From: a virus
Taxonomy: Duplodnaviria > Caudoviricetes
Length of the DNA stretch: 64,000 bases
Virus record (IMG/VR): IMGVR_UViG_3300031555_001437
Strand: one strand, 5' to 3'
The notes under the pieces were generated by a model that did no database searches, was not told the origin of the DNA, and saw nothing but the letters and a program-made list of their open reading frames with translations. Made by a program: the position numbers and the translations under genes. Numbering within the stretch: position 1 is the stretch's first letter; every line of letters starts with the position of its first letter. Of this stretch, positions 2,765-55,131 are shown piece by piece.

Positions 2765-3517
2765 TTGTTGATTTTAAAACTGAATATTCGTAACCAAAGA
2801 CTAAATAAATTCAACTCCGCAGTTATTGCTTCAAACTCCGCTGGCTATCTTTATTGCCAGTTTAATTTTCTGACTAATGATTGGGAAAAGGTTTCCGTAA
2901 AGATGGCTAATTTTAGCTACAGAGGGCGTAATTTCCCAGTTTTGATTGATGAAAATAATATGTGCGAAGTTCCAGTAGATGTCATTAAGCCAAACGCTTC
3001 CTTTAAGGTTAGTGTATTCGGTGGCGGCATCACTACAAATACTGTTAAATATGAAGTTGAAGATAGTGGAATTACTCCGTTTGAAGACGAGGGTATTTCT
3101 CTAAAATATTACAATGAAATAATCAATAAACTGTCAGCTACTATTGATGACCTCAATGAAACCAAGGCGGACAACATTGTTCTCGACACTGAAACCAATA
3201 CTATTCAGCTTACAGCAAATGGCATGCCAATCGGTGATGCTGTTGACTATGCAAGTTGTGGTATTAAGAGTTTTGATGTTGACGAGAACGATAACATTAC
3301 CATCACTTTGGTTGACGGTCGTGTTATCGACCTTGGCCATGTAGCTGGCGCAAACGGTGCTACTTTTATCCCACACATTGACGAAGACCATATTCTGACG
3401 TGGACAAACGATGGCGGTTTGCCTAACCCCGATCCTGTTGACCTTAATCCTCATGACGAATGGTCTACAGTCCCTGAAGAGGGTGTTGAAACAGAATATG
3501 AGTGGGAATTTCTATGA
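2765..3517 (+). CDS. BppU-like baseplate/fibre adaptor protein
   Basis: N-terminal Ig-like 'YLYCQFNFLTNDW...CEVP' segment. 'LTWTNDGGLPNPDPVDL' fibre motif. Ends EWEFL. Confidence 0.6.
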   Translation: MLILKLNIRNQRLNKFNSAVIASNSAGYLYCQFNFLTNDWEKVSVKMANFSYRGRNFPVLIDENNMCEVPVDVIKPNASFKVSVFGGGITTNTVKYEVEDSGITPFEDEGISLKYYNEIINKLSATIDDLNETKADNIVLDTETNTIQLTANGMPIGDAVDYASCGIKSFDVDENDNITITLVDGRVIDLGHVAGANGATFIPHIDEDHILTWTNDGGLPNPDPVDLNPHDEWSTVPEEGVETEYEWEFL

Positions 3518-30300: not shown

Positions 30301-33300
30301 CTGGTTCAGTTTATGTGCCAACCGAAGACCACTCTGAAACATATGGAGAAGATGTTTATGAGTTTTCAAAGGGTTACCATTACACATGGGACGGCACAAA
30401 ATGGCAAGAATCAAAATCTCCGTTTGTTGCATTTTCTGAACAATACGTAATTGGTAATGACGCTTTGAACTTTTGGGTCCCAGCAGTAAATATTATAGAA
30501 GATGATATTGTATATGAAAAAGACACATTATACATGTGGAAAGATGAACGCTGGCTCGCTGTTGCAACGCTCAAAGATAATGCAAATAGCAGAGCGACAA
30601 GCATGATATTGCAGAAGCAGAATGAAATATCTCTTAGCGTCAACAATGCACATAAGGATATTGCTGCTCTTGATTTGCGCGTTGATGAAAACGAAAATAG
30701 CATTGGGCTTGTTGTATCGAAAGAGGGCGAGAACTCTGTTATAAATGCAGCAAGCATTGTGGCAGCAGTAAATGACTCTGCGTCGTCCGTTGTAATTAAA
30801 GCAGATCATGTTCAACTTGATGGTGTTGTGTCGCTGGTGAATACTAAGGCTGACGAAATTACGACCTTGGTAAATACTAAGACGGACGAAGTTAAAAACA
30901 ACGCTGTTTATGATACCAAGGTTGAATATGCATTATCTAGTTCTGAGACTGATTTTGTTGCCATTACTGAATGGTCTACGACTGCACCAACATGGCAAGA
31001 TGGCGCATATATGTGGCAGAAAACTACAATTACAAAGGGTGATACCAGTGTGGCGTCAACTCAAACTTGTATTCAGGGTGCAAAAGGCGAAGATGGATAT
31101 ACTCCTGTGTTAGGCAAAGATTATTTTAATGGAACCAACGGCGAAAACGGTACATCGATTGTATGGAAGGGGTCTTTCAGCGTAGCTCCTAATAGCCCAG
31201 AAAATGGATGGGCATATTATAATACAAGCGCAAAAGCATCCTATACTTACCAGAATGGTTCATGGTATCAAATGTCTATTGATGGTGTTGATGGTAAAGA
31301 TGGTAAAGATGGTAACAATGGGCGTTCAATTGTATGGAAGGGAGAGTCTTCTAGTGCACCGACAAATCCACAAGAAAACTGGGTATATAAAGACTCCGAT
31401 GACGGCAAGGTTTATATTTATACTGGCTCTGGCTGGGAACTGATGGTGCTCGACGGCAGCGACGGCCAAGATGGTACAAACGGATCAAATGGCCTATCTG
31501 TCTTCATAACATATAACGATAGTAGTACAACTCCGAACACACCCACAGGTAACGGAACTGCAAACGGGTGGCATACAAATGCCACATCTACGTCTATCTG
31601 GATGAGCCAAAAAGTGGCCGAGAATGCAAGTTCTGGCGCGTGGGGCTCACCAATTAAAATCAAAGGAGAAAAGGGTCAAGATGGAAAGACTCCAGTTAAA
31701 GGCGTTGACTATTTTGATGGCTCTAATGGTAAGGACGGAACATCAATTGTGTGGAAAGGCACCTATGATTCCGCACCTAGCAATCCAGAAAACGGCTGGG
31801 CGTATTATGATACAAATGCAAAAGCGTCTTATGTATATCAAAATGGTTGGTATCAGATGTCTGTGGATGGAGTTGGTGTTAATGGTACGACGGTAACATA
31901 TGGCAAGTCTACTTCTGCCACGACAAAACCTACGTCGTGGACGACAACTATACCGACAGTTACTGAGGGTGAATATCTGTGGACTCAGACTGTAATTGAT
32001 TACACTGACGCATCTAAGCCAGATACAGTAACGTATACATACGCAAAACAAGGTGCGGATGGTCAGCCTGGTGTGGCAGGAACGTCTGTGACAGTTATAT
32101 CTATTTTATATCAGGTTGGCAGCTCTGCTACTCAGGCACCAACGGGAACAAATTGGAGTCAAAACGTTGTTGCTGTTCCACAAGGTAAGTATTTGTGGTC
32201 TAAGACGACGTTCTCTGATGGCAACGTTGCATATGGAGTATCCAGACAGGGCCAAGATGGTCTAGAGGGATCGTCAATTGTTTGGAAGGGCGAATTATCT
32301 GCACGCCCAGCGTCTGGCGAAAAGAATTGGGTATATAAGGATGCTGAAGATGGCATTGTGTATATTTGTACAGGTAATGGACTTTGGGAGCCCATGGTTC
32401 TAGATGGAAATGATGGTGCGGATGGTGCACCAGGAACAAATGGTTTGTCTGTTTTTATTACCTACAATGATAGTGCGACCACTCCAAATACTCCTACGGG
32501 CAACGGTACGTCTAACGGATGGCACACAAACGCAACGTCGAGTGCCATTTGGATGAGCCAAAAAGTTGCTAAGGATGCAGCATCTGGTTCGTGGGGTGCG
32601 CCTATTAAAATTCAAGGTAAAGACGGCAAGGACGGTGTTGGCGTCAGCTCAACCACCGTTTCTTATGGAACGTCTACGTCGGCTACAACGCAGCCGACAT
32701 CATGGCAGTCTACGATGCCAAATGTAACAGATGGACATTATTTGTGGACGCGCACGATCACAGACTATACGGATTCTTCTGTTGCAGATACTGTGACTTA
32801 TACTTATGTAAAACAGGGTTCAAAGGGTGAGACAGGATCTCCAGGAACATCTGTTACTGTTACGTCAATTCAGTATCAGGCTGGCGAGTCATCTACAACG
32901 GCTCCGACTGGTACGTGGAGCGATACAATTGTATCCGCTGCGGAGGGTAAATATTTGTGGACAAAGACGACATTCTCTGATGGAAAGGTTGCCTACGGCG
33001 TTGCAAAACAGGGTGTGTCTGGTAAAGATGGCTCTGGTATTAAAAAGGTGAATACTCATTTGCGCAGTTACCCACTCGCGTGGTGGAAAGAACATGCAGA
33101 CCCAGAATGTACTGATGTGAATTGGACGACTGGAACTTCTTATGACAACTCGCATATTAAGCAGGGTGACACAATATATATAGTCGGCGTAGCGTCAGAC
33201 GTTCTTAGCGCTAGCGGAACTGCGGTAACAGTCACTCTTTATGGCGTTGCGCAGTCTATTACGAGCTCTAACGTTACAATCGTTCCATCTCACTTAATAA

Positions 33301-37012: not shown

Positions 37013-37219
37013 ATGGAAAACAAACAAGAAAAGCGTCGCAGCTTCATCCTTGACGTTGAAGACGCAAAAAACGAATTAATCAAAGCTTTTAATGATATTA
37101 TTAAAAAGTACAATATGCCGTGCTATTTCTTGGAACCGACTTTGCAAAAGCTTACTTCGGAGGCTCATAACATTGCGCTCCAAGAATTAGCTGCGGCTCG
37201 ACAGGGTGATAATTCATGA
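37013..37219 (+). CDS. Small helical hypothetical protein
   Basis: 68 aa with AGGAG RBS, translationally coupled to the next gene. Confidence 0.6.
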   Translation: MENKQEKRRSFILDVEDAKNELIKAFNDIIKKYNMPCYFLEPTLQKLTSEAHNIALQELAAARQGDNS

Positions 37220-37710
37220 GAATAATCGGTATAGATGCAAGTACAAACAAGACTGGTATTGCTGTGTTAGATGACGGCAAGTATGTTACCAGTACGCTGA
37301 TTGACTTGCACAAAATGACAGATGCCAAAGTACGAATACCAAAGATGATGATGGAGATATGCGCGTATTTAGACGAGCACAAGGCAGATAAGATTGTCAT
37401 GGAGGAGTCTTGGTATGTCTCCAACATCTCTACGGTTAAGATGCTGGCGGAATTAGCAGGGGCGGTACGTTATTATGCCGCCTCTCACGGCATTGAGATT
37501 GAGTTTATGCTGCCCACGGCGTGGAGACGACGTGTGGGGCTTGTTCAGTCTGCAAAAGTAAAAAGAGAGAAATTAAAAGAAGAGGCTCTTGAAGCCGTTA
37601 AATATGAGTTCGGGTTAGATATTCCAGAAGACGAAGCTGAAGCTACGTTGATCGCAAAGGCTGGATTTAGTGTTGTTGTTGAAGAAGACGTCAACGAGTG
37701 GGTTATTTAA
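37216..37710 (+). CDS. ruvC: RuvC-like Holliday junction resolvase
   Basis: IIGIDAS..TG.A, IVMEE, L....G, P..W and DEAEA acidic motifs of the RuvC fold. Confidence 0.8.
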   Translation: MRIIGIDASTNKTGIAVLDDGKYVTSTLIDLHKMTDAKVRIPKMMMEICAYLDEHKADKIVMEESWYVSNISTVKMLAELAGAVRYYAASHGIEIEFMLPTAWRRRVGLVQSAKVKREKLKEEALEAVKYEFGLDIPEDEAEATLIAKAGFSVVVEEDVNEWVI

Positions 37711-38919: not shown

Positions 38920-41900
38920 ATGGCTCTAGGTTCAGATGTTCAATATAAAGCCAGCGTATTGTTTCAGGCTGCGTATGACAAAGAGTCTGCGAAAAATTTT
39001 GAAAATCGTCTCGTAGATCTTTCAAAAAACGCTGCGGAGATGTCAAAAAAAGAATTTGCCAAAGCTTTTAAGGGGCTAGGCAATATAATTAACGAGGCTC
39101 TCCGTACTTTGAAAATGCCAGAGATCGATGTGTCTAATATCTTAAAAACAAATACAAACATTGAGGCATTTAGCAAATTGGGCGAGGAGTTTGGTGAGAG
39201 TTTTAACGCGGGCATTGAGCTTGCTTTAACGAATAACGGAAACATTAACAAACTTTTAGAAATAAAAAGAAGAGAGCTTGAGAAAAGTTCTTTGTATAAA
39301 GCAACACAACGCGCACATGCCATCAAACATCTCACAAAAGATGGAGAAGCATACAATATTAGATCTGGAAATATCCGTGGTAGAGACTTTTCAAATACAG
39401 AAACTGAGAACATTGCTGCGGAGATGGATGATATTTATAAAAATATCGAAAATCTTGCGGTTGCTTTAAAGTCGATAAATAGTAAAACACATCCAGATGA
39501 GTTCAGAGCAAAATTTAATAGTTTGCAAGACGAGATTACGAAGTACATAGAAGGCGTTGTTGGATTACAAGATATCCCCTCTTTGTCTACAAATCCTAAA
39601 TACACAGTTAAATCACTTAGACAGCTGACAGCTAAATATGGTTTTGATGAAGAATATTGGGAAACAGTATTTAAAAGTTATCAAAAAAATCTCAAAGAGA
39701 AACAAGGGACAGAAGCATACACTAGAATGCTTGAACTCGAAGATGCTATCAGTAAACTAGAAGCACAAGCTAAATACGCATCAAAGTCTATTCGAGATAT
39801 TACTCAGGCAGTAGGGGAAATGTCTTCTTTGAGTCGACCAGAGCAAAAGAAAAAAGTTAAGGGTGTTGAGCAAGTAATTTCTGATGTTGAAAGCGGAAAA
39901 GCTGGACAGGTTGGAAGGGCGTTTAATCAATATAAGGATGCTAAGGATGCGGGCTCTGACTGGGTTACGATGTATTCAAAAGCCCTGAAGTTCTTGACTG
40001 CGTTCAACGCAATGAACCCAGAAAAACAGTTAACTGCAGAAAGAGACTGGCGTATACTGGCGGAACGTCTTAACCCGATGTTTGACCAGATAAAGAGTTC
40101 ACTGGAGTTATTTGTTCAGACTGCAAATGCGCGTCTATATCCTCCTTCTGGAGGTGGAGATGGCACTGGCGGAGGCACAGGTGGCGGTTCTGGCTCTGGT
40201 ATAGGTGCTGGAGGAAGCGGCTCTGGAGGCGTTGGTGCTGGTACACAGCCAGAGCAATCTAATAACGCTCCTAAAATAGAAGAAGAGAACAATGCTCTTA
40301 AAGAAAAACTAAATCTTCTCAAACAAATTGCTGCTGCATATGAATATCAGGCGGATGCCGAATTGGACGACAATGACCAAGAGTGGGATAACGCTAGAGA
40401 GTCAGTAGAGGAGTTTGAAAATGCATATTATTCGGCTATTGTCACTATGCAAGATGGCTCTAAGGTTGAGTTGTTGCTGGACGATGAATTTGCTGAAACG
40501 GCTCAGAATATTTTGGCTGATGCAAAAAATATTCAAAATATAGACCTTGTACCGAAGAGCGCCGAAGCTGCGATTCAAGCATATAATCATGTTGAGCAAG
40601 TACAAGCAAATATTCGTTCTTCTTTGAGTAGGTCGTGGAGTCAGCCAATTAATGGCAAAACAGAAGATGCTCTATTGTATTTAGGTCGGACGAGAACGAT
40701 GTTGGAAACTGCTATTTCCAACATGAACCAGGGTGATCCAGACGGTTCATGGGATTTCTCTGGCGCACAACAAACCGCAACCCAGTTGCTGTCTACAATT
40801 GAAGACATGCAGCAAAAGTTTGCGATGATGTTGCAAACAGAGCATAAGTTAAAAGAAATGAATATCACCCCTGACGCAGAACATTATTATGATGTTGTTG
40901 AAGGAATTAAAAATAACACGCTTACTACTGTCGACCAGTGCATTGCGAAGTATAAAGAGCTAGCTGGAATTGTTGATGTTGTAGACGATAAGACGGATAC
41001 AACTCCCGAAACTGGCAGAGGCGCAGGAGATGAAAGTGGCTCTGGTGGTTTTGGTTCTGGTTCTGGCGATGGAGGTGGCGGTGGTCCAAATGATGGGGAG
41101 CTCAAAAACCTCGAGGCTATTGAATCTGTGGTTGGACGTATTAAAACGGCGGTAGGTGAAAAATCGAAAGCGTTCTTAGAAGAGCAGGTCATTGTAAAGA
41201 GAGTCGCACAGTCTGAAGTCCATTCTTTGGGTGAAGTAGAGAAAAAAGTTAATGCCGTAAGAGTAGCGCTAGAGCGTATTTGTGGTGGTAAGATTAGCTC
41301 TGGCATGATGACCATCAACATCAAGACTAGCGGAAATGGCAGTGGCAAGAAGCCTGGAACTGCTAAGAGCGGTATGGATGATGAGATTTTTGACGCTAAA
41401 ATCGCAACACAATTCTCAAAGTTATTTTTAATGACAGAGCAACTCAGAGCGTCTGGTAAACTAACCGACACGGTTAGAGACAAACTAGATTTACTCTGGG
41501 ATGATTTAAATAATGTGAGCGACGCTAAGTCTCTTACACTATGGAGAGAAGAGTTTGCTCAGATTAATAATGAGATTAAAGAAATTGCTCTTGCAAATAA
41601 ATCTGTTGAAGATGTTGACGTAGACCCGTTTAGTGCTGCACTTGAAAATGCAAAATTATATAACAAGTTTGTGCTGAAAATGCACGGAACTAATGACGCC
41701 GAACTCAAGAATAAATACGAAACGATGGCAAACGATCTTCTAGTTGAGCAGTCTCAGTTGTTAAATGGGATTGTACTAACCAAAGAGCAAGAGAAGCAGC
41801 TAGATGATTTGAAAAATCAAAGAGAGCTTGATATTCTTGAATTACAAAAGAAGCAGGAACTGCAGGCCAAAAAGGCTGCAGATGCAAAAGCCAAAAACGA

Positions 41901-43176
41901 GATAATAGAGGCAAATAAAAAACTGGGTCAGTTGCAAGCGCAGCAAGAACAAGCTCCAAAAGAAATTCAAGGTTCTTTTGACTACTTAATTAACCAACAG
42001 AAACAAATCATAGAAGACAAGTCTAAGTTGTTGAGTATAGATAAAGAATTGTACGATGCAGATCGTGTTAAAGCGTACAATGAAGCAATCGGAAGACTTA
42101 AGATTGAAGAGGCTAAAGCTAATCACAGAGAGGATATTAGTGAGTCCAATCGTACGTTTAGACGCCAAGTAGCAAACTCTAGAACGAATGCGCAGTTATC
42201 AAGATCTCGCTCTACGGTTTTTGCAGGGCAGGAGATTATCAGTAATCTTGATAAGATAAAAAATGCCGTTGGTGTCACAGAAGCCAGCAAGGCAAAAATA
42301 AATGAATTGCGCGGCGCTTTGGATGACCTAAAGCAAACATATAACACTCTTAATAATCAGGCTGAACCAATTTCTAAAGAAGACGCCGATAAAGTTATTA
42401 GTCAAACAAACAATGTTCGTCTGCTAAATGCAGAAATGAAAAAGCTGTTAGAGCAACATCAGAAATTGAGCGGAGACAATGTTGATGTTATTGGGGTATA
42501 TAGCCCCAAAATGACCAGAAAAGATATAGAAGATCAAACCCTAGAATGGTACAAAAAAATGCACCAGCAAAACCCAGACGAATATAAGGGTATTAATATC
42601 AAAGGGTTTGACGATAACGGGAATTTAATTGCATCGCTAAAATCTGGTGCAAAAGAGTTTACTAATATTTCTGTAGCTGTCGACAAACTGTCTGGTAACA
42701 TAGCTGTTGTTCGTGGCCAGGTCAAAAAGACTCTTGGCCCTGTTGATTTGATTATCGATAAAACAAAACAGTTAGGATATTATTTAACTGGTTCATTTTT
42801 GATTAATTTTGCTAGGCAGCAGGTTCAAAAGGGAATTCAGTATGTAAGAGAAATTGATAGTGCTTTAACTGACTTAAAAAAAGTAACAGATGAAACAGAA
42901 GAAACATATGAAAAATTTTTGGATACAGCGAGTAAAACTGCAGACAAGGTAGGAAGTACGATAAAGGAAATTGTAAGTTCTACTGCAGATTGGAGCCGTC
43001 TTGGTTATTCTCTCGAAGATGCGGCAAAGCTTGCAGAAACAACTTCTGTTCTGTTGAATGTATCTGAATTTTCAAGTATAGACGAAGCAACGAGTGCACT
43101 GACCAGTACGTTGCAGGCGTTTGGATATACGGCAGATAACGCTATGGGCGTTGTAGATGTCATGAACGAAGTGGGT
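38920..43176 (+). CDS. Tape measure protein, exon 1 (1419 codons)
   Basis: Helical protein with TMP core 'IDSALTDLKKVTD...WSRLGYSL...VVDVMNEVG'. It continues in frame as NNFAVSS at 44170 once the intron is removed. Confidence 0.9.
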
Positions 43177-44169
43177 AAATATATTGCCCGTAGATAACTA
43201 TATCGGTTAAAGGCTGGGGACAGCTTAGACCGAGGTAAGATGAATTAAAACATTAAACATTATTAAATAAAGGAGTGGAATGAGATATGTTAGAAAGCAT
43301 AACTTTGTCACGAGAACAACAGCAAATTATTTTGGGTGGACTATTAGGGGACGCGTATTTTAATCAAAAAAGAAAAATTATTAGGTTTTCTCATAGCATC
43401 AAACAAGAAGAGTATTTGAATTGGAAGTACTCTTTTTTTAATGCAGACGATATTAACGGGATATATACTAGACAATATAAAGAAGGGCATATTAACAAGT
43501 ATTTCGAATTAACAAACAAGAATAAGTGCGTAGATATATTTTATGATTATTTTAAAAAATATTTATACAGTAACGATGGTCGTAAAAAAATTTCTTTGAA
43601 ATACTTAAAAAATATCGATGCATTTGGATTGGCCATTTGGTGGATGGATGATGGTAGCCTGTCTATCCACAAAGGTAATAGATATGGGAAATTATGTACT
43701 GAATGTTTTAATTACGAAGAACAAATATTGTTACAAAAATATTTTAAAGATATTTGGAATATTAATGTGGACATAAAGTCTGAAAAAAACAAATATTACT
43801 TCTTGCGTTTTAACGTCGGCGCATTACGAAAATTAATTCCTATTATTTATCAATATGTTTGTATGGTTCCAAGTATGATTTATAAAATAGATTTGGACTA
43901 TACGAATCAAAAATGTATTGGAGATTTGAAGGAAATTTATGATTACATCAAAATCCATCAATCAAATAATGTTTTAATTACATCAACTTTAACGACTGCA
44001 GGGTGTGCATAGTAATATGCATGCTGAAGTTATCCTTATGAAAGTAAGTAATATACAGTCTGATCTCACACTATAATCTAACAATGAAATGTGAGAGGTA
44101 GGATGAAAGTCCTATCCGCCACTTCAAGTGGTCAGTAGTTATTGTGAAATAACGAAAGTAACAGATTCG
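43177..44169 (+). ncRNA. Group I self-splicing intron (IA-like), 993 nt
   Basis: Exon ends in U with P1 GGGU/GCCC. Intron ends in G (44169). P3 GATAACT 43193-99/AGTTATC 44028-34. P4 TCGGT/ACCGA. P5 AGGCTG/CAGCTT. P6 43239-54/43968-84. P7 GACTG 43994-98/CAGTC 44056-60. P7.1, P8 and P9 hairpins present. Confidence 0.93.
43287..44012 (+). CDS. Intron-encoded LAGLIDADG homing endonuclease (LAGLIDADG_2-type, two motifs)
   Basis: 'IILGGLLGDA' and 'GLAIWWMDDGS' motifs. AT-rich, own RBS AAGGAG, located in the P6 loop. Confidence 0.92.
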   Translation: MLESITLSREQQQIILGGLLGDAYFNQKRKIIRFSHSIKQEEYLNWKYSFFNADDINGIYTRQYKEGHINKYFELTNKNKCVDIFYDYFKKYLYSNDGRKKISLKYLKNIDAFGLAIWWMDDGSLSIHKGNRYGKLCTECFNYEEQILLQKYFKDIWNINVDIKSEKNKYYFLRFNVGALRKLIPIIYQYVCMVPSMIYKIDLDYTNQKCIGDLKEIYDYIKIHQSNNVLITSTLTTAGCA

Positions 44170-47100
44170 AATAATTTTGCAGTATCAAGTGACGGAATAG
44201 CTACAGCGTTGCAAGATTCTGCGAGCTCGTTGATGGCCGCAAACAACAGCTATGAAGAGGCGGTTGCGTTAATAGCAGCTGCAAACCGAGTCGTTCAGGA
44301 CCCAAATAGCGTAGGCAGCGCCCTGCGTACGATTTCATTACGTTTGCGCGGAACAAGTGTAAAAGAACTCGAAAGCGCAGGCGAAGACACGTCTGGTGTT
44401 ATCGAGTCTAAGAGTAAACTCAGAAGTAAAGTAAAATCACTCTCTGGAGTAGATATATTAACAGATACTGGCGCATATAAGAGCACCTATGAAATCTTAT
44501 TGGAAATCTCAAAAGTTTGGTCTGATATTTCTGACACTGACCAAGCCGCATTACTTGAGATTCTCGCTGGTAAAAACCGCGCTAATACTGCAGCGGCTAT
44601 ACTTGGTAACCAAAAAGACCTAGAAGAAGCATATGCTAGCGCATTAAAAGCAGAGGGTAGTGCATTAAAAGAAAACGAAAAATACCTCGACTCTATCCAG
44701 GGCCGACTTGACCAGTTTACTAACGCAGTACAAACAATGTGGAGCAATACCATTTCAAGCGAATTGATTAAAAATGTTGTTCAATTCGGTACTGGGGTGG
44801 TAAACATTGTAGAGGATATTGGATTAATCCAGACCGCCCTATTAGCTACATTTGCAATTATCATGAAAACTCAAAAACTTTCTATCAAAGAGTTTTTGGT
44901 AGATATTTGGAAATGGATAGTTAACCTAAATGATTCTTTATCAAGATTGCCAGATAAATTACAGAATGTTAAATCTGTTTTATCTGGGATTAAAGAGTCT
45001 GTGTCTGCGACTATCAAGTCTATGGCTGAATATGCTAAGGCATTGCGCAGCATAGACAGTGAGTCTCTAAACTCTGTTTTGGGCAAAGCTGGTCTCAGTG
45101 GCCCGACAAAAGAATTGTCGGCACAACAGAAACAGACAGCGATGTCAGTTCTTGGTGAAGCCGCTGCGAATAAAGAGCTTACAGGCCAGCAAGCTGTTGC
45201 ATTAGCTCAAAAATATAAGCTAATTAAAGCTGAAGATGGCCTAAATGTTGCATACGCATCTAATGTGATGCGCGTAGCTGGAGTAAATCGTGAAACTCGT
45301 AAGTCAATTATTTCCACTCTAGGATTGAGTACGTCTACAAAAAAACTAACAAAAGATGAAATTATTAACGCTGCGGCTAAGGCTGGCATTACAGACGCAG
45401 CCGAGCAAGAAACAATAGCCAATATTCTTTTAGCTAAGTCAAATATGACTCTTAAAGAGTCTATCGGTGGCTTATTAAAGACAATGGCTCCGATGCTTGC
45501 AATTGCTGGTGTTATTGCTGTAGTTACTTTGCTAAGAAAAGCAATCGATTGGGCCACCGAAACAATGGAAGAAGCGCAAGAGGCATTTGATGAAATGTCT
45601 GATGAGTTGTCTGATATTAAACAAGACTTACAAGACCTGGAATCTCAACTTGAAACTATAAATGACCAGATAGACGAATTACAAAATAAAGGAACGCTAT
45701 CGTTCACAGAAGAGGAAGAACTTAGTAGACTCAAAGAAGAGAGCGCGGAACTTGAGCGCCAGATATCTTTGAAAAATCAGCTATATTCTCAACAGCAAAA
45801 AAAGGTAAACAGTGAGGCTGTTGATATTGCTAACAAATATAAAAACGTCGGTGTGAAGTCTGGTAAAACTACTGGCGAGCGAGCTGCATCTTGGGGAAAA
45901 GGCGGGGCAGTTGCTGGTGCCATAGGTGGAGTCGCAGCGGCCGCTATTTTAGCTATCGCTGGAGCGGTAACTGGAGGTGTAGCGTGGGGCGTAGCTGCCG
46001 CTCTCGGAGTTGCTGGCGCTGTAAGCGGAGCTAGTTCTGGAGGTATGATTGGCGGAATACTTGGCGCTGCAGAAGAAAAAGTTGACGACTCTCTTGATAA
46101 TATGAGAGAAAGATACGCCGAGCTTGAGAAGGAATACTCTGAGGCACAAACAAAATATCGGGAAACTGGCAAAGATAAACACAAGGAAAAATATGATGAG
46201 GCTTCTGAGGCACTGTCTGAATATGAAGCCGAAATGGCTCAGTATCTGAGCGAAATGGACGCTTATTATAGCTCCATAGACCTTAGCGTTTATGATCCAG
46301 TAAAAGACGCAGAAGAAATTGCTCGTTTGCGCCAAGAAATGAATGATTTCTACGACACTCAGGATAAGTGGGCTATTCAAACTGGCGGAGCTGATGCAAA
46401 ATACAACGCTATAACTCGCATATTTGGTCAAAATGCAGATGAGACATTAAAAGATATTAAAGCGGACATTGAAGGCGTAATAAAATCAACAGAGTCAACT
46501 GGAAAAGATGTTGATATCAATCTTGAGGATATGTTCCCAGGTGATGAAGAGTTTAATAAATTTAAGCAAAGACTCTACGATATGGGCATTTATGTCTCAG
46601 ATGTTGAACGATACTTCAATGACTTAGCAGAGGCTAAAGACGACGCTTTGAACACTGACGATTATATTGGTGTTGCGAAAAACATATCGTCGATAACGGA
46701 TAAGCTAGAAAGCTTGAAGAGTGTCATTTCCGAGATAAGAGAAAACGGCATAGTCTCGTCAAAAACAATGGATGAGCTCAATGAATCTTTTGGTTCGATT
46801 GATGCAATATCCGACGAATGGAATAGATTTGTTGAAGTAATGATGCTTGGGTCTGCAAGTACAGCAGAAATGAAGGCTGCAGTTGAAGACCTTGTTGGAG
46901 CATGGTTGGACAATCAGGTTCTTAATGGGCCGATGACAGAATATGAAAAAGTGGCAATATCTTTACAGCTTGCTGCACTCGGTGTTAAGAATGCTTTCGA
47001 AGTTGTAAATGACGCCCAAAAAGAAGCTGGTCTTAATGCGGTGTCTGACGCAATTCAAGATAAGTTACAAAAGAAAGACGCAATCGAGGCCGTTGACGCA

Positions 47101-50100
47101 AAAGATAGAACAAAAGAACAAAAAGAACAACTGAAACAGCTAACCGAAGAATTAAAAAATGTTGACGTTGATTCTGATTGGATAGCTAGCATTGCAGAAC
47201 AGTATGGGTTGACAAATGATGAATTAAGAGACCATATTGATTTGCTAAAACGCAAAGCAGAATTGGAAAAGCAGCAAGCAGAAATAGATGCTTATAATAC
47301 CGCAAAAGAAAACAAAGAAACGCTAGAAAAACAATTAGAAGAAGAGAAGGACAAATATACCGTCAAAACCGACCGTAAGGGAAATACTAGGAGAACTAGA
47401 CATACCGAAACAACATATTTTGATTCGGAAGGCAATAAAGTATCGAAAGAAGAATATGAAGCTCATAAAGCAAAAATCGATGAACTGCAAGATAAGATAG
47501 ACAAAGAAGAGAAAATTATCGTTGATTTGAAGCCGTCTGCAAATGAGAATGAAATTAGCGAAGAACTTGAAGATATTAACAAACAAATCGAATCTGGAAT
47601 TACGGATAGTGTTGAAATAAAGTTAGATTTTGAAGATTTTGATGCTGATATAGATTCAATACAAAATGCTTATTCTACATTAACTGATGCTGTAAAAGAA
47701 TATAATAAAAACGGCTACCTGACGCTTGATAATTTGCAGTCTTTGTTATCGTTGAGCCCAGAGTATTTGGCATGTCTCCAAATGGAAAACGGACAGCTTA
47801 GTATTAATAGACAAGCTCTCGAGGCGATGATACAGGCTAAACTAGCAGATGCCAAGGCTACCGTTGTTCAAAAAGCAATAACGCAACTAAATGAACTAGC
47901 AACAAGAAAAGAAACTGATGCCATTAATAATAGTAGTGTAGCAGCGTCAAACGCAGTTGGTGGCTTGGGGACATATGCGGCGGCTCTTAGCAATGTATCG
48001 AAAGATGCGATTACTGCGGCTGGCTCTGTTGCCGCATTTAATGCCGCGGTTGCTGGCGCGCAAGCAAATGAATTGGTTGACCAGGCTGAAATTGATGCTA
48101 TATTAAGTAGCATGGATGCTCAGCTTCAGATGATAGACGATGTTAGCCTAAATCTCAACACTAATTTTAAATCAATTGTTTCGCCAAACGGCGGCGGAAG
48201 CGGCAGTGACAAAACAGATGAAGCAAATGAAGCTCTCGACAATCTCACTAAAAAATACGAACGCAAAGTTAATAACCTTGAGAACCAACAAGAATATCTC
48301 CAAAATAAAATCGATACGCTCGAGGCTCAAAAAGAATACGATCCGCAGAATGCTAAAGGTATATCTACCGATTATTACGAAGAGCAAATACGTCTGGAAA
48401 ACGAAAAATTGAAGCTATATCGTGCAGAGTATGCCGAACTTTCTAAACTCGAAAAAACAGATGAAGTAGCTGAACGTATGTGGGAACTCGAACATGCCAT
48501 TCAAGAGTCTGCACAACGTACTCTCGAATTCAGACAGAGTATCGCAGAACTCTATAACACAGCGTTCGAAGACATTCAAACCGCTGGGGACAACAAGGAT
48601 GATTATCTCCAAGACCAAAAGGATTACATCGAGGCATACATTGAGGCTCAAGGTAGAGACACGACAAAAGCTGACCTTGAGCAATTGCGCACTATCACAG
48701 AGCAACAAAGAAAAGATCGCGAGGAAACACTTGAAGACCTAAAGGCAACACTGAAACAAGGTGTTGACTCTGGTGCAATCAAAGAGGGTTCTGACATCTG
48801 GATTCAGATGAACGACGAAATCCGTGCAACAGAACTCGCAATTCAAGACGACACCAAAGCTATCAATGAATATAGCGAGGCTATCAAGAGCATTCCAGTT
48901 GAAGTGTTTGACCGCATGCGCGAGGCGTTTGGGTTCAGAGACCAGGTATATAACAATCAAATTGATTATATCGAAGGTTGGATGGAGCTTGCAGAAAAGC
49001 AGGGGTACGACGTTCCTAATGAAGCTCTTGACAAGATTCTTGCTATCTATGGCAATGCAAAAGAAAATAATCTAGCAGACATTTACAGCGCCATGGAAGA
49101 CCTGCCTAAGATAGAGGCTGAATTCGGAGTTAACAGCGAAGAGTATCAAAACGCATACCTGAAATTGTCAGATTTAATCAAGCAGGGTCTTGATATCGAT
49201 AACGCAATTGCAGATACGCAGCAACGCCAAAAAGAACAACCGATTAATGAGTTTGAAGATACTAAAGACTGGTTCGCGTTTGAAGACAGTTTGATTGAGA
49301 AGCGAAAAGAATCTATTGAGAACTACATCTCGAAGTTAGAAGAAAGCGGAGATTTCGACGGTCTTGAGACAAAGTATGGTGAGTTGATTCAGGCAGAGCA
49401 AGACGATATTGATATGAACATGCAGGAGCTCACAGCGACAGAGGCGGCAATCAAAGCGGCTATTGACGCTGGATATACTATGGAGGATGAAGAGCTCCAG
49501 AATTTAATATTGCACTATGGCGACGTTGAAAGCGAAATTGCAGCCAGCAGAGACCGACAGGCTGAGCTTAACAAAGAGATTGACTCTATTCCAGTTAAGA
49601 AGCTCGAGGAGTTGAAAAACGGATATGCGTTTATCAATGATGTTCTTGGTTCTTATCGTGATGTCACTAAGGGCTGGATAGACTTGTTTAAAAACGTTGG
49701 AAGCGCTATTCCAGATGAGCTATATAATGAATTGTTCGAAATCAACGAGCTCATGCAGGGGCACAATACCAATAACCTCGCAGATTCACTTGCTGCGTTT
49801 GAAGACATTAAAGCTAAGTACGCTCCTAACACAAAAGAATACCAAGATGCGGTTAATCATATTGCCTCTCTGTATATGGAAGAAGTTAATCTTGCAACAG
49901 AGGCGCAGTCTTACAATCAAGAAATGGCAGAAGCAAACGAAGAGGCGGGTAACATTCCAGTTGAGAATTTCGAAAGAATGCGAGATGCCTTTGCGTTTAT
50001 TGCAGATGTATTAGCAAGCACTCAGGGCTATATCGAAAGCTATATTAGTCTCTTTGAAGAACTTGGCGTTGATGTCCCAATGGAATTATATGACAAGCTA

Positions 50101-52584
50101 ATTGACCTCGAGAAGCAAAAGAAGAGCAATGCAGAGTCTGATTTGGCTAGTGCACTGACTGGTTTTGAGGAAATTAAGGCCGCTGGTTATACTGCTGCGG
50201 ACGAAGAATACCGCAGCGCAGAGCAAGCAATTCTTGACCTAAAGCAATCTATCCTTGATAGTGATATCGCCATGGTTAAATGGGGTAAAACTATCCGCGA
50301 TCTTGAGTTTGAAAAATTCGAGCGTGGTGTTTCTCGTGCGAATGATGCAATCGATGAGGTGCAAAAGATATACGACCTGACATCAAAAGATGACGTTGCA
50401 GACGAAGACGGTTCTTGGACCAAAGATGGTATCACGTCTCTTGGCCTTATGTATGAGCAGATGGAACTTGCCCAGCAAATAGCTGCTAAATATGCCGACG
50501 AAATCAAAGAGCTTGACGAGGCATACGCAAACGGCGAGATGTCTGAAAAAGAATATTATGAGCGTCTGCAGCAGCTAAAAGACGGGCAGTGGGGCGCTAT
50601 CGATTCTTATGAGGCCGCAAGAGAGGCCATAGTCGATATGGAAGAAGCCCGAATCGATATGGTCGAAGAGGGAATTAACAAAGAAATCGAAGCATATCGT
50701 GAACTCATTGAGACCAAAAAAGAAGAGCTAGACGCAGAACGTGATCTGCATGGTTTTAGAAATAAGATTAAGGATCAAACAAAAGATATTACATCCTTAA
50801 CCCGCAAAATAGCGGCTTTGTCTGGTAGCGACAATGCTGCTGATATCGCGGAACGTCGCAAATTGCAAGCTCAGCTGGCAGAAGCACAAGAACAACTAGA
50901 TGAAACCTACTACGACCACTCGAAAGATCAGCAAGGCAAAGCTCTCGATGATGAACTTGAGTCCTTCCAAGACATAAAAGAAAATTACGTTGAAACTCTT
51001 AGGGAGTCTCTTGATGATACTGCTGCTATCATCAGTGCGAAGATTAACGAATTGCTTGTCAACGCAGACACTGTACAGCAGGGTATCAACAACACGGCTG
51101 CCGAATACGGCATTACGTTGACTGATTTGTTAACAAATCCTTGGAATTCTGGTTCTAACAGTGCGGACGATTTTGCGGCACAAGTTGGGCTCGACTTGGC
51201 ATCTTTGCTTGGCGAAAGTGGTGCGATTACTCTGTTCGAAAATCAAGCAACTACTGCCATTCAAGGTGCATTTGGTGCGGCAAGACAGTCGTCTACCGAC
51301 TTCTCAGGTGGTGTAAGCATTGATGTTAATTCGTTGATGGCTGAGCCAGATGGTCCACTATATAAACTAAAACAGTTCTTAACAGACAATGTTCCTAATG
51401 CGTTCGATGCTGCTGGAGATGCTTCTGACGAGACTAAAAATGATATCGGAGAAGACGCAGATGAATCTGAGACGTCGGTTACAGATTTTGAAAAATTATT
51501 AAATCAGGTTCTTGACAGAATTGCAGAGAAGCTTGGCACAGACAAAGAAACTGTGCTCAGTGACCTAAAATACCCGTGGGAAAATGCTGGCGCTGTCTTA
51601 GATATGTTGTTTGGCGATAAAATCACTGGCGAAAATGGTTTGTTGAAAAAGATTCTTACAGAGACTCAGACCTGGGCCGACAACATGAAAAACGGTCTTG
51701 GCTCCGCTTTTGATATTCCACAGAGCACTCTCAATACCTTTAGCACAAAGGTTGGAGAGATTTTAGATAAACTGCAGAGCAAAGCAGAAGAGTTGGCGAA
51801 AGAACTCCAAAATGCTGCAAACACCGAAACTCCAAGCCACACTGGTAATGGAAGCGGCAATTCTGACGAAGACGATTTTGGAAGTGTAGACGGAAGTCAG
51901 ACAAAGCAGCCAAGCTCAGCAGTTAAAGCTATCCAGAAATATCTCAATCAATACTTTGGTGAAAATCTAACAGTTGATGGTCTGTGGGGAGCAAATACTA
52001 CACTAGCGGTTAAGCGCGCGCAAGCTAAAGCTGGTACTGCCTCAAATGGTAAATGGGACGCAAAAACTGTTAAGGCAATAGCAAACTATTGGACAGAAAA
52101 GTTACATGAAACAAGATACAACAATAATGGGTCTAGTATGATTGGCCAGGCATTAAGAGTTTATCAAAACGCTGCGACTTCTATTCCTGTTGCGTATCAC
52201 GCTAAAGGTACTCTCGGCACTAAAAAAGACGAATTCGCGATCACAGACGAAAGTTGGATAGGTGAAGAGATTACTCTTGCCGCTGGAAAGAACGGTCAAA
52301 TCCAGTACCTCAAGAAAGGCTCCTCCGTGATGCCTTCGGATATCAGTACAAACCTAATTGAGTGGGGTAAGCTCAATCCAGAGATGATGAATCTCAACGG
52401 CGGAGTAAACTTCAATATGATTAACAATGCTACAACTAAGCCAGAATTCAACCTAACGTTTGATAGTTTGGTTCACGTAGATAAGTGTTCTCAGGATACT
52501 TTAAAAGATCTTGAAAAGATGGTGGATGTCAGAATCAATAACCTAATGAAACAGGTTAATTATGCAATAAATAGATTCAAATAA
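44170..52584 (+). CDS. Tape measure protein, exon 2, with C-terminal peptidoglycan-binding domain
   Basis: Starts NNFAVSSDGIATALQDSAS (TMP core). Hydrophobic Gly/Ala segments, long coiled coil, PG_binding_1-like 'VKAIQKYL...LTVDGLWG..T..AVK..Q', then 'YHAKGT'. Confidence 0.9.
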   Translation, partial: NNFAVSSDGIATALQDSASSLMAANNSYEEAVALIAAANRVVQDPNSVGSALRTISLRLRGTSVKELESAGEDTSGVIESKSKLRSKVKSLSGVDILTDTGAYKSTYEILLEISKVWSDISDTDQAALLEILAGKNRANTAAAILGNQKDLEEAYASALKAEGSALKENEKYLDSIQGRLDQFTNAVQTMWSNTISSELIKNVVQFGTGVVNIVEDIGLIQTALLATFAIIMKTQKLSIKEFLVDIWKWIVNLNDSLSRLPDKLQNVKSVLSGIKESVSATIKSMAEYAKALRSIDSESLNSVLGKAGLSGPTKELSAQQKQTAMSVLGEAAANKELTGQQAVALAQKYKLIKAEDGLNVAYASNVMRVAGVNRETRKSIISTLGLSTSTKKLTKDEIINAAAKAGITDAAEQETIANILLAKSNMTLKESIGGLLKTMAPMLAIAGVIAVVTLLRKAIDWATETMEEAQEAFDEMSDELSDIKQDLQDLESQLETINDQIDELQNKGTLSFTEEEELSRLKEESAELERQISLKNQLYSQQQKKVNSEAVDIANKYKNVGVKSGKTTGERAASWGKGGAVAGAIGGVAAAAILAIAGAVTGGVAWGVAAALGVAGAVSGASSGGMIGGILGAAEEKVDDSLDNMRERYAELEKEYSEAQTKYRETGKDKHKEKYDEASEALSEYEAEMAQYLSEMDAYYSSIDLSVYDPVKDAEEIARLRQEMNDFYDTQDKWAIQTGGADAKYNAITRIFGQNADETLKDIKADIEGVIKSTESTGKDVDINLEDMFPGDEEFNKFKQRLYDMGIYVSDVERYFNDLAEAKDDALNTDDYIGVAKNISSITDKLESLKSVISEIRENGIVSSKTMDELNESFGSIDAISDEWNRFVEVMMLGSASTAEMKAAVEDLVGAWLDNQVLNGPMTEYEKVAISLQLAALGVKNAFEVVNDAQKEAGLNAVSDAIQDKLQKKDAIEAVDAKDRTKEQKEQLKQLTEELKNVDVDSDWIASIAEQYGLTNDELRDHIDLLKRKAELEKQQAEIDAYNTAKENKETLEKQLEEEKDKYTVKTDRKGNTRRTRHTETTYFDSEGNKVSKEEYEAHKAKIDELQDKIDKEEKIIVDLKPSANENEISEELEDINKQIESGITDSVEIKLDFEDFDADIDSIQNAYSTLTDAVKEYNKNGYLTLDNLQSLLSLSPEYLACLQMENGQLSINRQALEAMIQAKLADAKATVVQKAITQLNELATRKETDAINNSSVAASNAVGGLGTYAAALSNVSKDAITAAGSVAAFNAAVAGAQANELVDQAEIDAILSSMDAQLQMIDDVSLNLNTNFKSIVSPNGGGSGSDKTDEANEALDNLTKKYERKVNNLENQQEYLQNKIDTLEAQKEYDPQNAKGISTDYYEEQIRLENEKLKLYRAEYAELSKLEKTDEVAERMWELEHAIQESAQRTLEFRQSIAELYNTAFEDIQTAGDNKDDYLQDQKDYIEAYIEAQGRDTTKADLEQLRTITEQQRKDREETLEDLKATLKQGVDSGAIKEGSDIWIQMNDEIRATELAIQDDTKAINEYSEAIKSIPVEVFDRMREAFGFRDQVYNNQIDYIEGWMELAEKQGYDVPNEALDKILAIYGNAKENNLADIYSAMEDLPKIEAEFGVNSEEYQNAYLKLSDLIKQGLDIDNAIADTQQRQKEQPINEFEDTKDWFAFEDSLIEKRKESIENYISKLEESGDFDGLETKYGELIQAEQDDIDMNMQELTATEAAIKAAIDAGYTMEDEELQNLILHYGDVESEIAASRDRQAELNKEIDSIPVKKLEELKNGYAFINDVLGSYRDVTKGWIDLFKNVGSAIPDELYNELFEINELMQGHNTNNLADSLAAFEDIKAKYAPNTKEYQDAVNHIASLYMEEVNLATEAQSYNQEMAEANEEAGNIPVENFERMRDAFAFIADVLASTQGYIESYISLFEELGVDVPMELYDKLIDLEKQKKSNAESDLASALTGFEEIKAAGYTAADEEYRSAEQAILDLKQSILDSDIAMVKWGKTIRDLEFEKFERGVSRANDAIDEVQKIYDLTSKDDVADEDGSWTKDGITSLGLMYEQMELAQQIAAKYADEIKELDEAYANGEMSEKEYYERLQQLKDGQWGAIDSYEAAREAIVDMEEARIDMVEEGINKEIEAYRELIETKKEELDAERDLHGFRNKIKDQTKDITSLTRKIAALSGSDNAADIAERRKLQAQLAEAQEQLDETYYDHSKDQQGKALDDELESFQDIKENYVETLRESLDDTAAIISAKINELLVNADTVQQGINNTAAEYGITLTDLLTNPWNSGSNSADDFAAQVGLDLASLLGESGAITLFENQATTAIQGAFGAARQSSTDFSGGVSIDVNSLMAEPDGPLYKLKQFLTDNVPNAFDAAGDASDETKNDIGEDADESETSVTDFEKLLNQVLDRIAEKLGTDKETVLSDLKYPWENAGAVLDMLFGDKITGENGLLKKILTETQTWADNMKNGLGSAFDIPQSTLNTFSTKVGEILDKLQSKAEELAKELQNAANTETPSHTGNGSGNSDEDDFGSVDGSQTKQPSSAVKAIQKYLNQYFGENLTVDGLWGANTTLAVKRAQAKAGTASNGKWDAKTVKAIANYWTEKLHETRYNNNGSSMIGQALRVYQNAATSIPVAYHAKGTLGTKKDEFAITDESWIGEEITLAAGKNGQIQYLKKGSSVMPSDISTNLIEWGKLNPEMMNLNGGVNFNMINNATTKPEFNLTFDSLVHVDKCSQDTLKDLEKMVDVRINNLMKQVNYAINRFK

Positions 52585-52837: not shown

Positions 52838-52864
52838 ATAGTTTGCTTGGGAGGTATATATTAT

Positions 52865-54166
52865 ATGAGGAAACAGCTAGGTTTTTTACATGAAACAGAT
52901 GCGAGTCTGATGGAGTATATGGTTGACTTAAATGACGCCTATAAGTACAAAAGATATGCTAAAGAATATATTTGGGTGCGCTGCCCAGCGTGCGGTAGGC
53001 TGTCATATAGAGCAGTGTATGACTTTGTGCAACGACCAACGTATTGCAAGTTCTGTTGTGATGGTATGTCATATCCTAATAAATTTATGTTAAATTTCTT
53101 GCTGCAACTTGGACTGAATGTTGAACCAGAAAAGATTTTTGATTGGTCTGAAAAGAAGAGATATGATGATTACATAGAAAGCCACAATTTAATTATAGAA
53201 AATCACGGTATACAGCATTACGAAAATATTAATAAAAAAATTTACCTTCCGTTGGAGAAACAAATGGAGATAGATGCGTATAAAAAACAATTGGCGCTTA
53301 ACCACGATATAGAACACTACGTCGAAATAGATTGCAGACATTCAGAAATGGAGTGGATTCGTCAATCTATTATGACATCTAAATTGCCTACAATTCTGTC
53401 TTTTCAAGAACAAGATATAGATTGGAACGAATGTGATTGTCGGTCGAAAAAAAGTGTGCTTATCGAGGCTTGCAATCTGTGGAATGATGGAATACACAAC
53501 ACTATGGAAATAGCAAGCGAATTGCACATTTCAAGATCAACTGTAAGTAAGTATTTAAAAAGTGGCGCAAAATTAGGTTTGTGTGAATATGACCCGTATG
53601 TAGAAATGCAAAAAGTATGGGATCTTGGTAGGACTGAGGAAGTGCAAAAGAAGAAGTGTAAACCAGTCGCCGTATATAATACGATTGGAATTGTCGCCGT
53701 ATTTGAGAGCGCAGTGCAATTGTCAAACGAATCAAAGCGATTATTTGGCGTATATATTAGCCGACCAATGACCACAAGCGTTTGTAACGGCAATAGCAAA
53801 ACACACGTTGGATTACGTTTAGAATTTATCACAAAAGAAGAATACGCCATGTATTATAATGTTTTTGGCGGCAATGTTAATTTAGAAAACTTTAACCCGA
53901 ATATTAGATATTCCTCTAGAGAAAAACCTATCGCGGCGTTTTACCAAGAAGTTCTTGTTGATACGTTTGGCGGAAGGATGGAGGCTGCGCTCGTTTTAAC
54001 AGAAAGGTTTGGTGTGACATTTTCTCCTAACGGCATAGTTCATGTATGTCTTGGTCAACAAAAACAGCACAATGGTTTTATTTTTAAACACATTACCAGA
54101 GAAGAATACGAACGCAACAAAATGAATAATACTGAAATAATTTTAAAGGAGGTTTTGGCTGTATGA
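52865..54166 (+). CDS. Free-standing putative homing endonuclease (Zn ribbon + Vsr/PD-(D/E)xK-like nuclease + HTH/NUMOD-like repeats)
   Basis: CPAC...CKFC, 'RYD.YI....IIE.HG.QHY', HTH 'IASELHISRSTVSKYL', and two 'KP...F.S....C.G...H.G..F' repeats. ATG 52865 after GGGAGG. Confidence 0.7.
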   Translation: MRKQLGFLHETDASLMEYMVDLNDAYKYKRYAKEYIWVRCPACGRLSYRAVYDFVQRPTYCKFCCDGMSYPNKFMLNFLLQLGLNVEPEKIFDWSEKKRYDDYIESHNLIIENHGIQHYENINKKIYLPLEKQMEIDAYKKQLALNHDIEHYVEIDCRHSEMEWIRQSIMTSKLPTILSFQEQDIDWNECDCRSKKSVLIEACNLWNDGIHNTMEIASELHISRSTVSKYLKSGAKLGLCEYDPYVEMQKVWDLGRTEEVQKKKCKPVAVYNTIGIVAVFESAVQLSNESKRLFGVYISRPMTTSVCNGNSKTHVGLRLEFITKEEYAMYYNVFGGNVNLENFNPNIRYSSREKPIAAFYQEVLVDTFGGRMEAALVLTERFGVTFSPNGIVHVCLGQQKQHNGFIFKHITREEYERNKMNNTEIILKEVLAV

Positions 54167-55131
54167 TTAGTCCGCAAAGAATCAAGTGGATGGGGATATC
54201 ATCATTAGAAATGGATGTGCATACACACCTAAGTTTTGAAGGGGATAGCGGAGACGTTGAAACCGCACTTGGTAGAGAAGCCGTCATATCTGAAACATAT
54301 AACAATACATTTAAAAGACCTCATGGGTATAGTTGGAACAACGACTTTACTTCGACCGTGACCTTTATTAAGAATGATTTCTCTGACATCACACCTGAAG
54401 AGAATAGAAAAATCCTTACGTGGCTGACAAGGAGTAAAAACGCCTCCTTTTTGGATGTTTATCACGACGACTCCGAAGTAATCTCCTATTCCATATTAGG
54501 TAACTGGACGTCGATCTCGCAGTATAAAATGGGTAATGGCCGCGTAGTGGGTATAATTGCTACGTTCGACTCGGCGTTTCCGTGGGCCCTGTCTCCGTTG
54601 CGTACAGTCATAAAAGAAATTGGTGAAACAGAAATCGTCCTTGACGACTATAACGCAGTCCACACAGACTGTCCAGAAGATGCAATTTACCCTCGCATCA
54701 CTATCGAACAGAATGAAATTACATCTGTTGTCGAGATAGACCACTCGATGACCGAAGAGGACGAGTGGGTTGATGGAACTGTATATCACCACGGCGGCAC
54801 TTATTACTGGCGCGATGCTAAAGGCGTTAAGCAAACGTCTGTAACAAAACCAACGGGCATTGAGACTACTAGTGTGACAATAACCAATGTTTACGACGAC
54901 GAGAGTAAATCTATAAGCACCACTGTAAAAAACAATATCAAAGGTGAGACAGTTGTTCTCGACGGTGCAAATCGAATAGTGTCCAGCGATAGAATGTCTG
55001 GCCGCATTTTTGGCGACGACTTTGATTGGGATTGGCTGCCGCTGTTTAACGGCTCTAATAAGATTTATGTCATTGGTAATTGCAAACTAACCTTGGAATG
55101 GCGAGAGCCAATTAAGTGCGGCTCTCTGTAA
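54163..55131 (+). CDS. Distal tail protein (Dit-like)
   Basis: First structural gene after the TMP. 'ILTWL', 'PWALS' and 'FDWDWLPLFNGSNKI' Dit-like motifs. Confidence 0.75.
   Translation: MISPQRIKWMGISSLEMDVHTHLSFEGDSGDVETALGREAVISETYNNTFKRPHGYSWNNDFTSTVTFIKNDFSDITPEENRKILTWLTRSKNASFLDVYHDDSEVISYSILGNWTSISQYKMGNGRVVGIIATFDSAFPWALSPLRTVIKEIGETEIVLDDYNAVHTDCPEDAIYPRITIEQNEITSVVEIDHSMTEEDEWVDGTVYHHGGTYYWRDAKGVKQTSVTKPTGIETTSVTITNVYDDESKSISTTVKNNIKGETVVLDGANRIVSSDRMSGRIFGDDFDWDWLPLFNGSNKIYVIGNCKLTLEWREPIKCGSL

Follow-up and report, generated by a model that had tools for sequence, protein, structure and literature searches.

The tape measure gene and its insert

The window, by which we mean the whole 64-kb stretch of phage DNA analysed here, carries a tape measure protein (TMP) gene in two parts, separated by an insert with an open reading frame (ORF) of its own:

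38920-43176 (+): TMP exon 1, 1419 aa, ending ...GTGGGT; matches to PF10145 and PHROG 4211
43177-44169 (+): group I intron, 993 nt; boundaries from intron-less homologues
43287-44012 (+): LAGLIDADG homing endonuclease gene, 241 aa; PF03161 at 96.3 bits, phrog_11023
44170-52584 (+): TMP exon 2, 2804 aa plus stop (coding to 52581), starting AATAAT; matches to PF10145 and PHROG 4211

Excision of 43177-44169 fuses DVMNEVG|NNFAVSS with the frame kept and gives a joined TMP of 4223 aa, as read from the sequence and the ORF list; the coordinates proposed in the initial annotation are exact. In the unspliced form, the exon 1 frame adds K Y I A R R and then meets a TAA at 43195-43197 (ORF 38920-43197). 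The initial annotation had placed this stop correctly, six codons into the intron, but had given the codon as TAG. The GC content of the intron is ~30% vs ~39-42% in the flanking exons.

The split gene is identified as a phage tape measure gene by its profile matches and by its position in the tail module, with a minor tail protein gene downstream (PHROG). PHROG 4211 (tail length tape measure protein) matches over profile positions 584-720 on exon 1 and 722-1097 on exon 2, with E-values of 1.7e-26 and 2e-43, respectively. PF10145 (PhageMin_Tail) aligns over profile positions 2-85 with residues 1339-1418 of exon 1 and over positions 87-201 with residues 1-134 of exon 2, at scores (34.3 and 33.8 bits) that are marginally above the cut-off of 33.2. 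The insert splits the TMP gene inside this domain, which is contiguous in all intron-less homologues.

Two neighbouring genes should also be mentioned. A RuvC-like Holliday-junction resolvase is encoded within the tail-gene block at 37216-37710 (+; phrog_159, 1e-17), ~1.2 kb before the TMP gene begins at 38920. An ORF of 439 aa at 52847-54166 (+), which matches homing endonuclease/HNH PHROGs (phrog_9084, 2e-18; phrog_559, 1.5e-14), is free-standing; it follows the TMP gene and overlaps the tail gene that comes next (54163-55131) by 4 nt.

The first line of evidence for an intron is the continuity of the exons in homologues. With the 140 residues on either side of the insert (end of exon 1, start of exon 2) as tblastn queries against isolated phages, the two matches abut at 32306|32307 within the annotated TMP of Brevibacillus phage Sundance and at 4349|4350 in MT837120. 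Among the 39 IMG/VR relatives retrieved with exon 2, the exon matches meet exactly at 3000|3001 in more than 25, and these intron-less relatives read NEVG|NNFA at the insertion codon. The closest TMP relatives are 77-88% identical to the window protein and include the intron-less L003, in which the junction reads VDVLNEVG|NNFAISSD and the site DNA is GAGGTCGGA|AACAAT. The initial annotation was to be abandoned if intron-less homologues did not read NEVGNNFA; since they do, that ground for abandoning it falls away. A conserved host frame is thus uninterrupted once the insert is removed.

The same evidence bears on the possibility that the intron has decayed and no longer splices, leaving the TMP as two polypeptides (one of 1425 aa and one begun at a GTG at 44128) or the gene as dead. 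A GTG-started ORF does exist at 44128-52584, but the break between the two putative polypeptides would then lie midway through a conserved domain, one that all intron-less homologues have in a single piece.

The ribozyme fold

The following elements of a group I ribozyme can be placed in and around the insert, all on the (+) strand. P4 and P5 derive from RNAalifold applied to relatives, and P7 to P9.2 from RNAalifold and pair counts.

43171-43191 (+): P1, exon GTGGGT (43171-76) with internal guide GCCCGT (43186-91)
43182-85 with 44170-73 (+): P10, TATT in the P1 loop with AATA of exon 2; read from sequence
43193-98 with 44029-34 (+): P3, GATAAC with GTTATC; long-range pairing, covariation
43203-08 with 43228-33 (+): P4
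43213-16 with 43221-24 (+): P5, GNRA loop GGGA
43234-43242 (+), part: P6, 5' strand GGT, pairing with 43986-88; sequence and compensation
43234-43242 (+), part: P6a, 5' strand GATG, pairing with 43981-84; read from sequence
43243-43980 (+): L6a loop, 738 nt, holding the ORF
43994-98 with 44056-60 (+): P7, GACTG with CAGTC
44002-11 with 44016-25 (+): P7.1, 10 bp, loop GTAA
44035-38 with 44045-48 (+): P8
44065-70 with 44090-95 (+): P9
44097-104 with 44109-116 (+): P9.1
44118-23 with 44127-32 (+): further hairpin after P9.1
44138-43 with 44148-53 (+): P9.2, loop GTGA
44169 (+): terminal G; read from sequence

At the 5' splice site, the exon base U43176 pairs with G43186 of the guide, flanked by three G-C pairs, and the last base of the intron is a G. 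The strands of P7 (43994-44060) enclose P7.1, the 3' strand of P3, and P8. P2 is absent from the window copy; some relatives have one. An unconstrained minimum-free-energy fold of an ORF-deleted construct recovered the hairpins and, as expected, did not recover the P3/P7 pseudoknot.

Between P7 and the 3' strand of P3 lies a single hairpin (P7.1) of 10 bp, which covaries and has a GNRA loop. A second hairpin beside P7 (P7.2 or P7.1a) was not found. Extra pairings near P7, namely P7.1/P7.2 (or P7.1a), define subgroup IA (IA1/IA2/IA3; PMC3984707). The group I intron of the window is described here as IA-like.

The general group I model of Rfam, RF00028, gave no match on the window, either at its gathering threshold (50 bits) or at E-values up to 10, when applied to the whole window, to 43100-44250, and to the 3' part alone. 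Two points are relevant here: the 738-nt ORF-bearing loop interrupts the core, and the gathering score is a cut-off for detection and does not bear on the biochemistry. RF00028 aligns ORF-less relatives of the intron over the full length of the model, at scores that also stay below 50 bits (35.5 bits with E 1.4e-5 for L118, 21.3 for L037, and 19.9 for L107); the curated model thus recognises this intron family weakly. Because Rfam had no match on the window, the fold was tested by comparison with relatives.

Every testable helix shows compensatory changes across ~35 related IMG/VR introns. For the 3' halves of 35 introns, aligned unguided with MAFFT, RNAalifold returned P7, P7.1, P8, P9, P9.1, the further hairpin, and P9.2, i.e., exactly the helices drawn by hand, with compensation in 26 of the 37 pairs. 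In pair counts over 35 sequences, 96.0% of cells are paired, and sliding the partners lowers this to 26-39%; covariation scores 0.60, vs 0.06-0.12 in controls, and none of 500 shuffles reaches 0.60. In P3, whose strands are far apart in the sequence, all six positions pair in nearly all full-length relatives (five of six in L144), and eight compensated sequence pairs occur, such as ATTTAC/GTAAAT and AGAAAC/GTTTCT. RNAalifold on 19 relatives finds compensatory changes in 7 of the 10 pairs of P4 and P5, and P6 is compensated as GGT/ACC vs GGA/TCC.

The pairings that involve the exons behave likewise. P1 follows the exon sequence, being GGGT/GCCC in the window and AGGT/GCCT, GTGGT/GCCAC, CGTCGGT/GCCGACG, or CAAGGGT/GCCCTTG in relatives. 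P10, TATT/AATA in the window, is compensated as GTT/AAC in L001, and is weaker (2 bp) in some relatives. The covarying P3-P8 core with its P3/P7 pseudoknot and the P10 pairing of the guide with the 3' exon are therefore both present. Of the elements that the initial annotation had identified, namely the U-G of P1, P10, P3 to P9, and the terminal G, all were found, with support from covariation.

The initial annotation had also proposed a search with group I covariance models. RF00028 has no match on the window. A family model built from 30 relatives, with the window and its nearest same-site relatives left out, matches 43989-44172 at 163.6 bits (E ~1e-38), its sole match in the 64 kb. Loss of splicing by decay could draw on the shortness of P8, which has only 4 bp in the window copy, and on the missing Rfam match. 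Against it, all consensus pairs present in the window copy are standard pairs, and the core attains the score just given against the model of its own family.

The endonuclease ORF and the exchange of nuclease genes

The LAGLIDADG ORF starts in L6a, with a Shine-Dalgarno sequence (AAGGAG) upstream at 43270-75. Its final 32 nt (43981-44012) overlap the ribozyme core, namely P6a and P6 (3' strands), J6/7, and the 5' strands of P7 and P7.1; the TAG stop is made up of the last two stem bases of P7.1 and the first base of its loop. This arrangement had been described in the initial annotation for an ORF in L6, and it holds, the loop being L6a. The product matches LAGLIDADG_2 (PF03161) at 96.3 bits against a cut-off of 25 (E 2.5e-27). 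Its motifs GGLLGD (D22) and WWMDDG (D121, D122), including the acidic residues, are invariant in 23 homologues. From these features it looks like an intact monomeric enzyme with two motifs, similar to I-SceI, which is yeast mitochondrial and encoded in an rRNA intron. A profile of the 23 homologues matches I-SceI itself (PDB 1R7M, 3OOR) over ~197 residues with an E-value of 1.4e-10. An ORF that is intact, with invariant motifs kept, is a further argument against decay of the intron, a reading that we consider highly improbable.

LAGLIDADG domains are known also from inteins and from some group II introns, to judge from the title of a reference cited in PMC3706429, and the insert might in principle be an intervening element of either kind. 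The in-frame stops and the ribosome-binding site of its own show that the insert is not an intein. A group II intron is opposed by the absence of a reverse transcriptase, by the length of 993 nt, and by a core that is that of a group I intron in place of domains I-VI. The probability of any such element is, in our opinion, close to negligible.

The LAGLIDADG ORF has at least 163 metagenomic homologues at 46-90% identity, with P0002 (90%) among the closest. Six IMG/VR copies were inspected, and all six lie inside related group I introns. In the contig L159, an intron at the TMP site used in the window encodes a LAGLIDADG protein with 59% identity; the LAGLIDADG intron of L158 occupies a different site in the same TMP domain. 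In the search for related loci, the single LAGLIDADG protein retrieved no relatives; an alignment used as the query did. The start region AGGAGTGGAATGAGATATG (43270-43289) is nearly identical upstream of the LAGLIDADG ORFs of L157 and L158, which are themselves just 57-61% identical; the endonuclease cassette thus seems to carry its ribosome-binding region along when it moves.

The ribozyme has a wider distribution than this one nuclease. An IMG/VR scan with a 17-base core pattern, followed by a filter on a second motif ~100 nt downstream, yielded ~40 distinct members of the intron family. About half of the 117 matches to the core pattern do not have the 3' motif of the family; these were excluded and may be chance matches or other intron families. 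At the same TMP codon, inserts of 1239-1241 nt (L001, L002, L006), 1225 nt (L010), and 1195 nt (L031) were found, and at nearby codons of the same TMP domain inserts occur in L010 (1465-1753), L030, L036, and L037. The 5' and 3' ends of all these inserts are plainly homologous to the ends of the window intron. In L001, L010, L053, L133, and L155, the same ribozyme occupies the same codon, with a DUF2726 ORF of 312-323 aa in place of the LAGLIDADG ORF. Four of these genes, which are PD-(D/E)xK-like and encode 312-321 aa, have the following coordinates in their contigs: L001, 1866-2813; L010, 185-1147; L053, 3202-4137; L133, 2067-3002. Their products and the LAGLIDADG protein end in identical residues, TTAGCA, because both kinds of ORF run through the ribozyme core in one and the same frame. 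The DUF2726 ORF of L155 reads the core in another frame. Other members of the family hold GIY-YIG, DUF4379 treble-clef, or NUMOD1 ORFs, or no ORF at all, as in the ~300-nt copies of L037, L085, L107, L118, L150, and L153. ORFs of at least five kinds are thus found in the family, which has inserted at several places in the PF10145 region of TMP genes.

These comparisons also bear on whether the insert could be a free-standing homing endonuclease gene that happens to lie between the halves of a naturally split TMP gene, without ribozyme function. Free-standing homing endonuclease genes are common in phages, and one of them (52847-54166) adjoins the TMP gene downstream. The ~270 nt of non-coding flanks of the insert, however, take up a covarying RNA fold shared with the ORF-less L037, L085, L118, and L150, and the guide pairings P1 and P10 covary with exon sequences. 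An arrangement of this kind is accordingly a very remote prospect.

All intron-bearing alleles have GAAGTGGGT before the splice site, and many intron-less alleles carry synonymous variants there that would weaken P1. Metagenome contigs from four faecal/bovine DNA runs span both intron-exon junctions of the window with zero differences; among the sequencing runs searched for the stretch, no RNA run contained it. The joint 43176->44170, which would represent an intron-less form of the window phage, was found in none of the contigs from these four DNA runs. The joints that did occur, 43240->44048/49/53 and 43261->43926, are in contigs that carry 5-8 mismatches and are probably those of related introns in other phages of the same samples. 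Neither the region nor the 3' core has a blastn match among 50,697 phage records.

Several contigs carry other inserts as well. Further TMP inserts of 1.2-1.7 kb follow exon-2 residues 138 and 126 (L031, 3418-4668; L035, 3382-5120; L011); their 5' ends look different, and they possibly represent another intron family. In L011, no match to exon 1 is present within 3 kb upstream. Extra group I introns that score above the Rfam cut-off (65-94 bits) adjoin family members in L150 (5308-5606), L107 (5822-6131 and 6787-7142), and L085 (4436-4765, minus strand), and two more in L153 (7088-7489 and 9836-10239) fall just below it, at 47-49 bits. With such introns packed beside family members, some phage genes carry three or four in a row.

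Interpretation and known systems

In our opinion, the insert is, with a probability of about 0.9, a mobile IA-like group I intron that carries a LAGLIDADG endonuclease gene in the TMP gene of a large phage from animal faeces. Exon continuity, the covarying fold, the intact motifs, and the variation in presence and in nuclease genes support this reading, and the central claim of the initial annotation, that a group I intron with a LAGLIDADG gene splits the TMP gene, is upheld by the exons, the core, and the I-SceI-like ORF alike. Catalytic splicing, the activity of the endonuclease, and its target are what we infer from sequence. That splicing could time virion production, as the initial annotation suggested, is a conjecture on which the present results have no bearing. 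The ribozyme (P1-P10) would form in the primary transcript; attack by an external guanosine after U43176 would release the end of exon 1, which would itself attack after G44169. The exons would be ligated as GTGGGT|AATAAT (product GAAGTGGGT|AATAATTTT) and encode one TMP of 4223 aa; RNA left unspliced would yield only the 1425-aa fragment. In a co-infection, the endonuclease would presumably cut intron-less TMP alleles around NEVG|NNFA, and repair of the cut allele would copy the intron in, which constitutes homing.

A more far-reaching proposal is that the ribozyme serves as a long-lived 'landing pad' at one conserved TMP codon, on which unrelated nucleases replace one another, and that translation and splicing exclude each other; we consider this tentative and, on balance, unlikely. 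If ribosomes on the tail of the ORF that encodes TTAGCA and the stop were to unfold P7, each RNA molecule could serve either the translation of the nuclease or the splicing of the TMP exons, not both. The output of the homing enzyme would then be coupled to the supply of the tape measure protein and hence to tail assembly.

For annotation, the mobile-intron reading means that ORFs 38920-43197 and 44128-52584 are to be merged into a single TMP of 4223 aa, with the 241-aa ORF named as a LAGLIDADG endonuclease encoded in an intron. As the family falls below the curated threshold of the Rfam group I model, the annotation of phage genomes from metagenomes probably misses a share of such introns and leaves structural genes 'split'.

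Group I introns in TMP genes have a precedent in TMP-IVS1, -IVS2, and -IVS3, which belong to subgroups IA1/IA2 and occupy three TMP sites in prophages of the Bacillus cereus group (Tourasse and Kolsto 2008; PMC2504315). The window intron and its family resemble them in being group I introns at several TMP sites, with related ribozymes and site-adapted P1 and P10, and in the variation among copies in presence and in loss of the homing endonuclease gene. Unlike those prophages, the window belongs to an uncultured phage from faeces for which blastn finds no match among isolated phages, and its TMP has 4223 aa vs >1200 aa in the prophages, the two systems being compared here by description. The initial annotation, which held TMP introns and phage LAGLIDADG introns to be less common, overstated their rarity, because TMP introns at several sites have been known since 2008 (PMC2504315) and the LAGLIDADG clade has the numerous homologues counted above.

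The overlap of the ORF with the core is also known. [quoted passage not shown] 2011; PMC3073962). In these introns, as in the window, the ORF lies in the P6/P6a loop; the overlap is 20 nt and 56 nt there and 32 nt here. The td and nrdF introns carry GIY-YIG enzymes in genes of nucleotide metabolism, whereas the window intron carries a LAGLIDADG enzyme in a structural gene. Reviews name GIY-YIG, HNH, PD-(D/E)xK, and EDxHD as the usual enzymes of phage introns (PMC3984707). A LAGLIDADG gene of the same PHROG family (phrog_11023) was reported as a single case in a group I intron of a Nitunavirus (Bastillevirinae survey 2025; PMC11878797). The host gene there is a DNA polymerase and here the TMP; in the Bastillevirinae set, introns had colonised only genes of DNA/nucleotide metabolism and terminases (PMC11878797). 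The enzyme itself resembles I-SceI (1R7M, 3OOR) as a monomeric double-motif LAGLIDADG_2 protein, at low sequence similarity.

TMP group I introns, ORF/core overlap, and LAGLIDADG enzymes in phage introns have thus all been published before; the window is a further example of them and adds no new mechanism. What it contributes beyond the known cases is modest: a host gene of 4223 aa and a widespread intron family that Rfam does not see and whose nuclease genes are interchangeable. This family recurs across many IMG/VR phage contigs, and the pattern described by Tourasse and Kolsto is repeated in an uncultured lineage.
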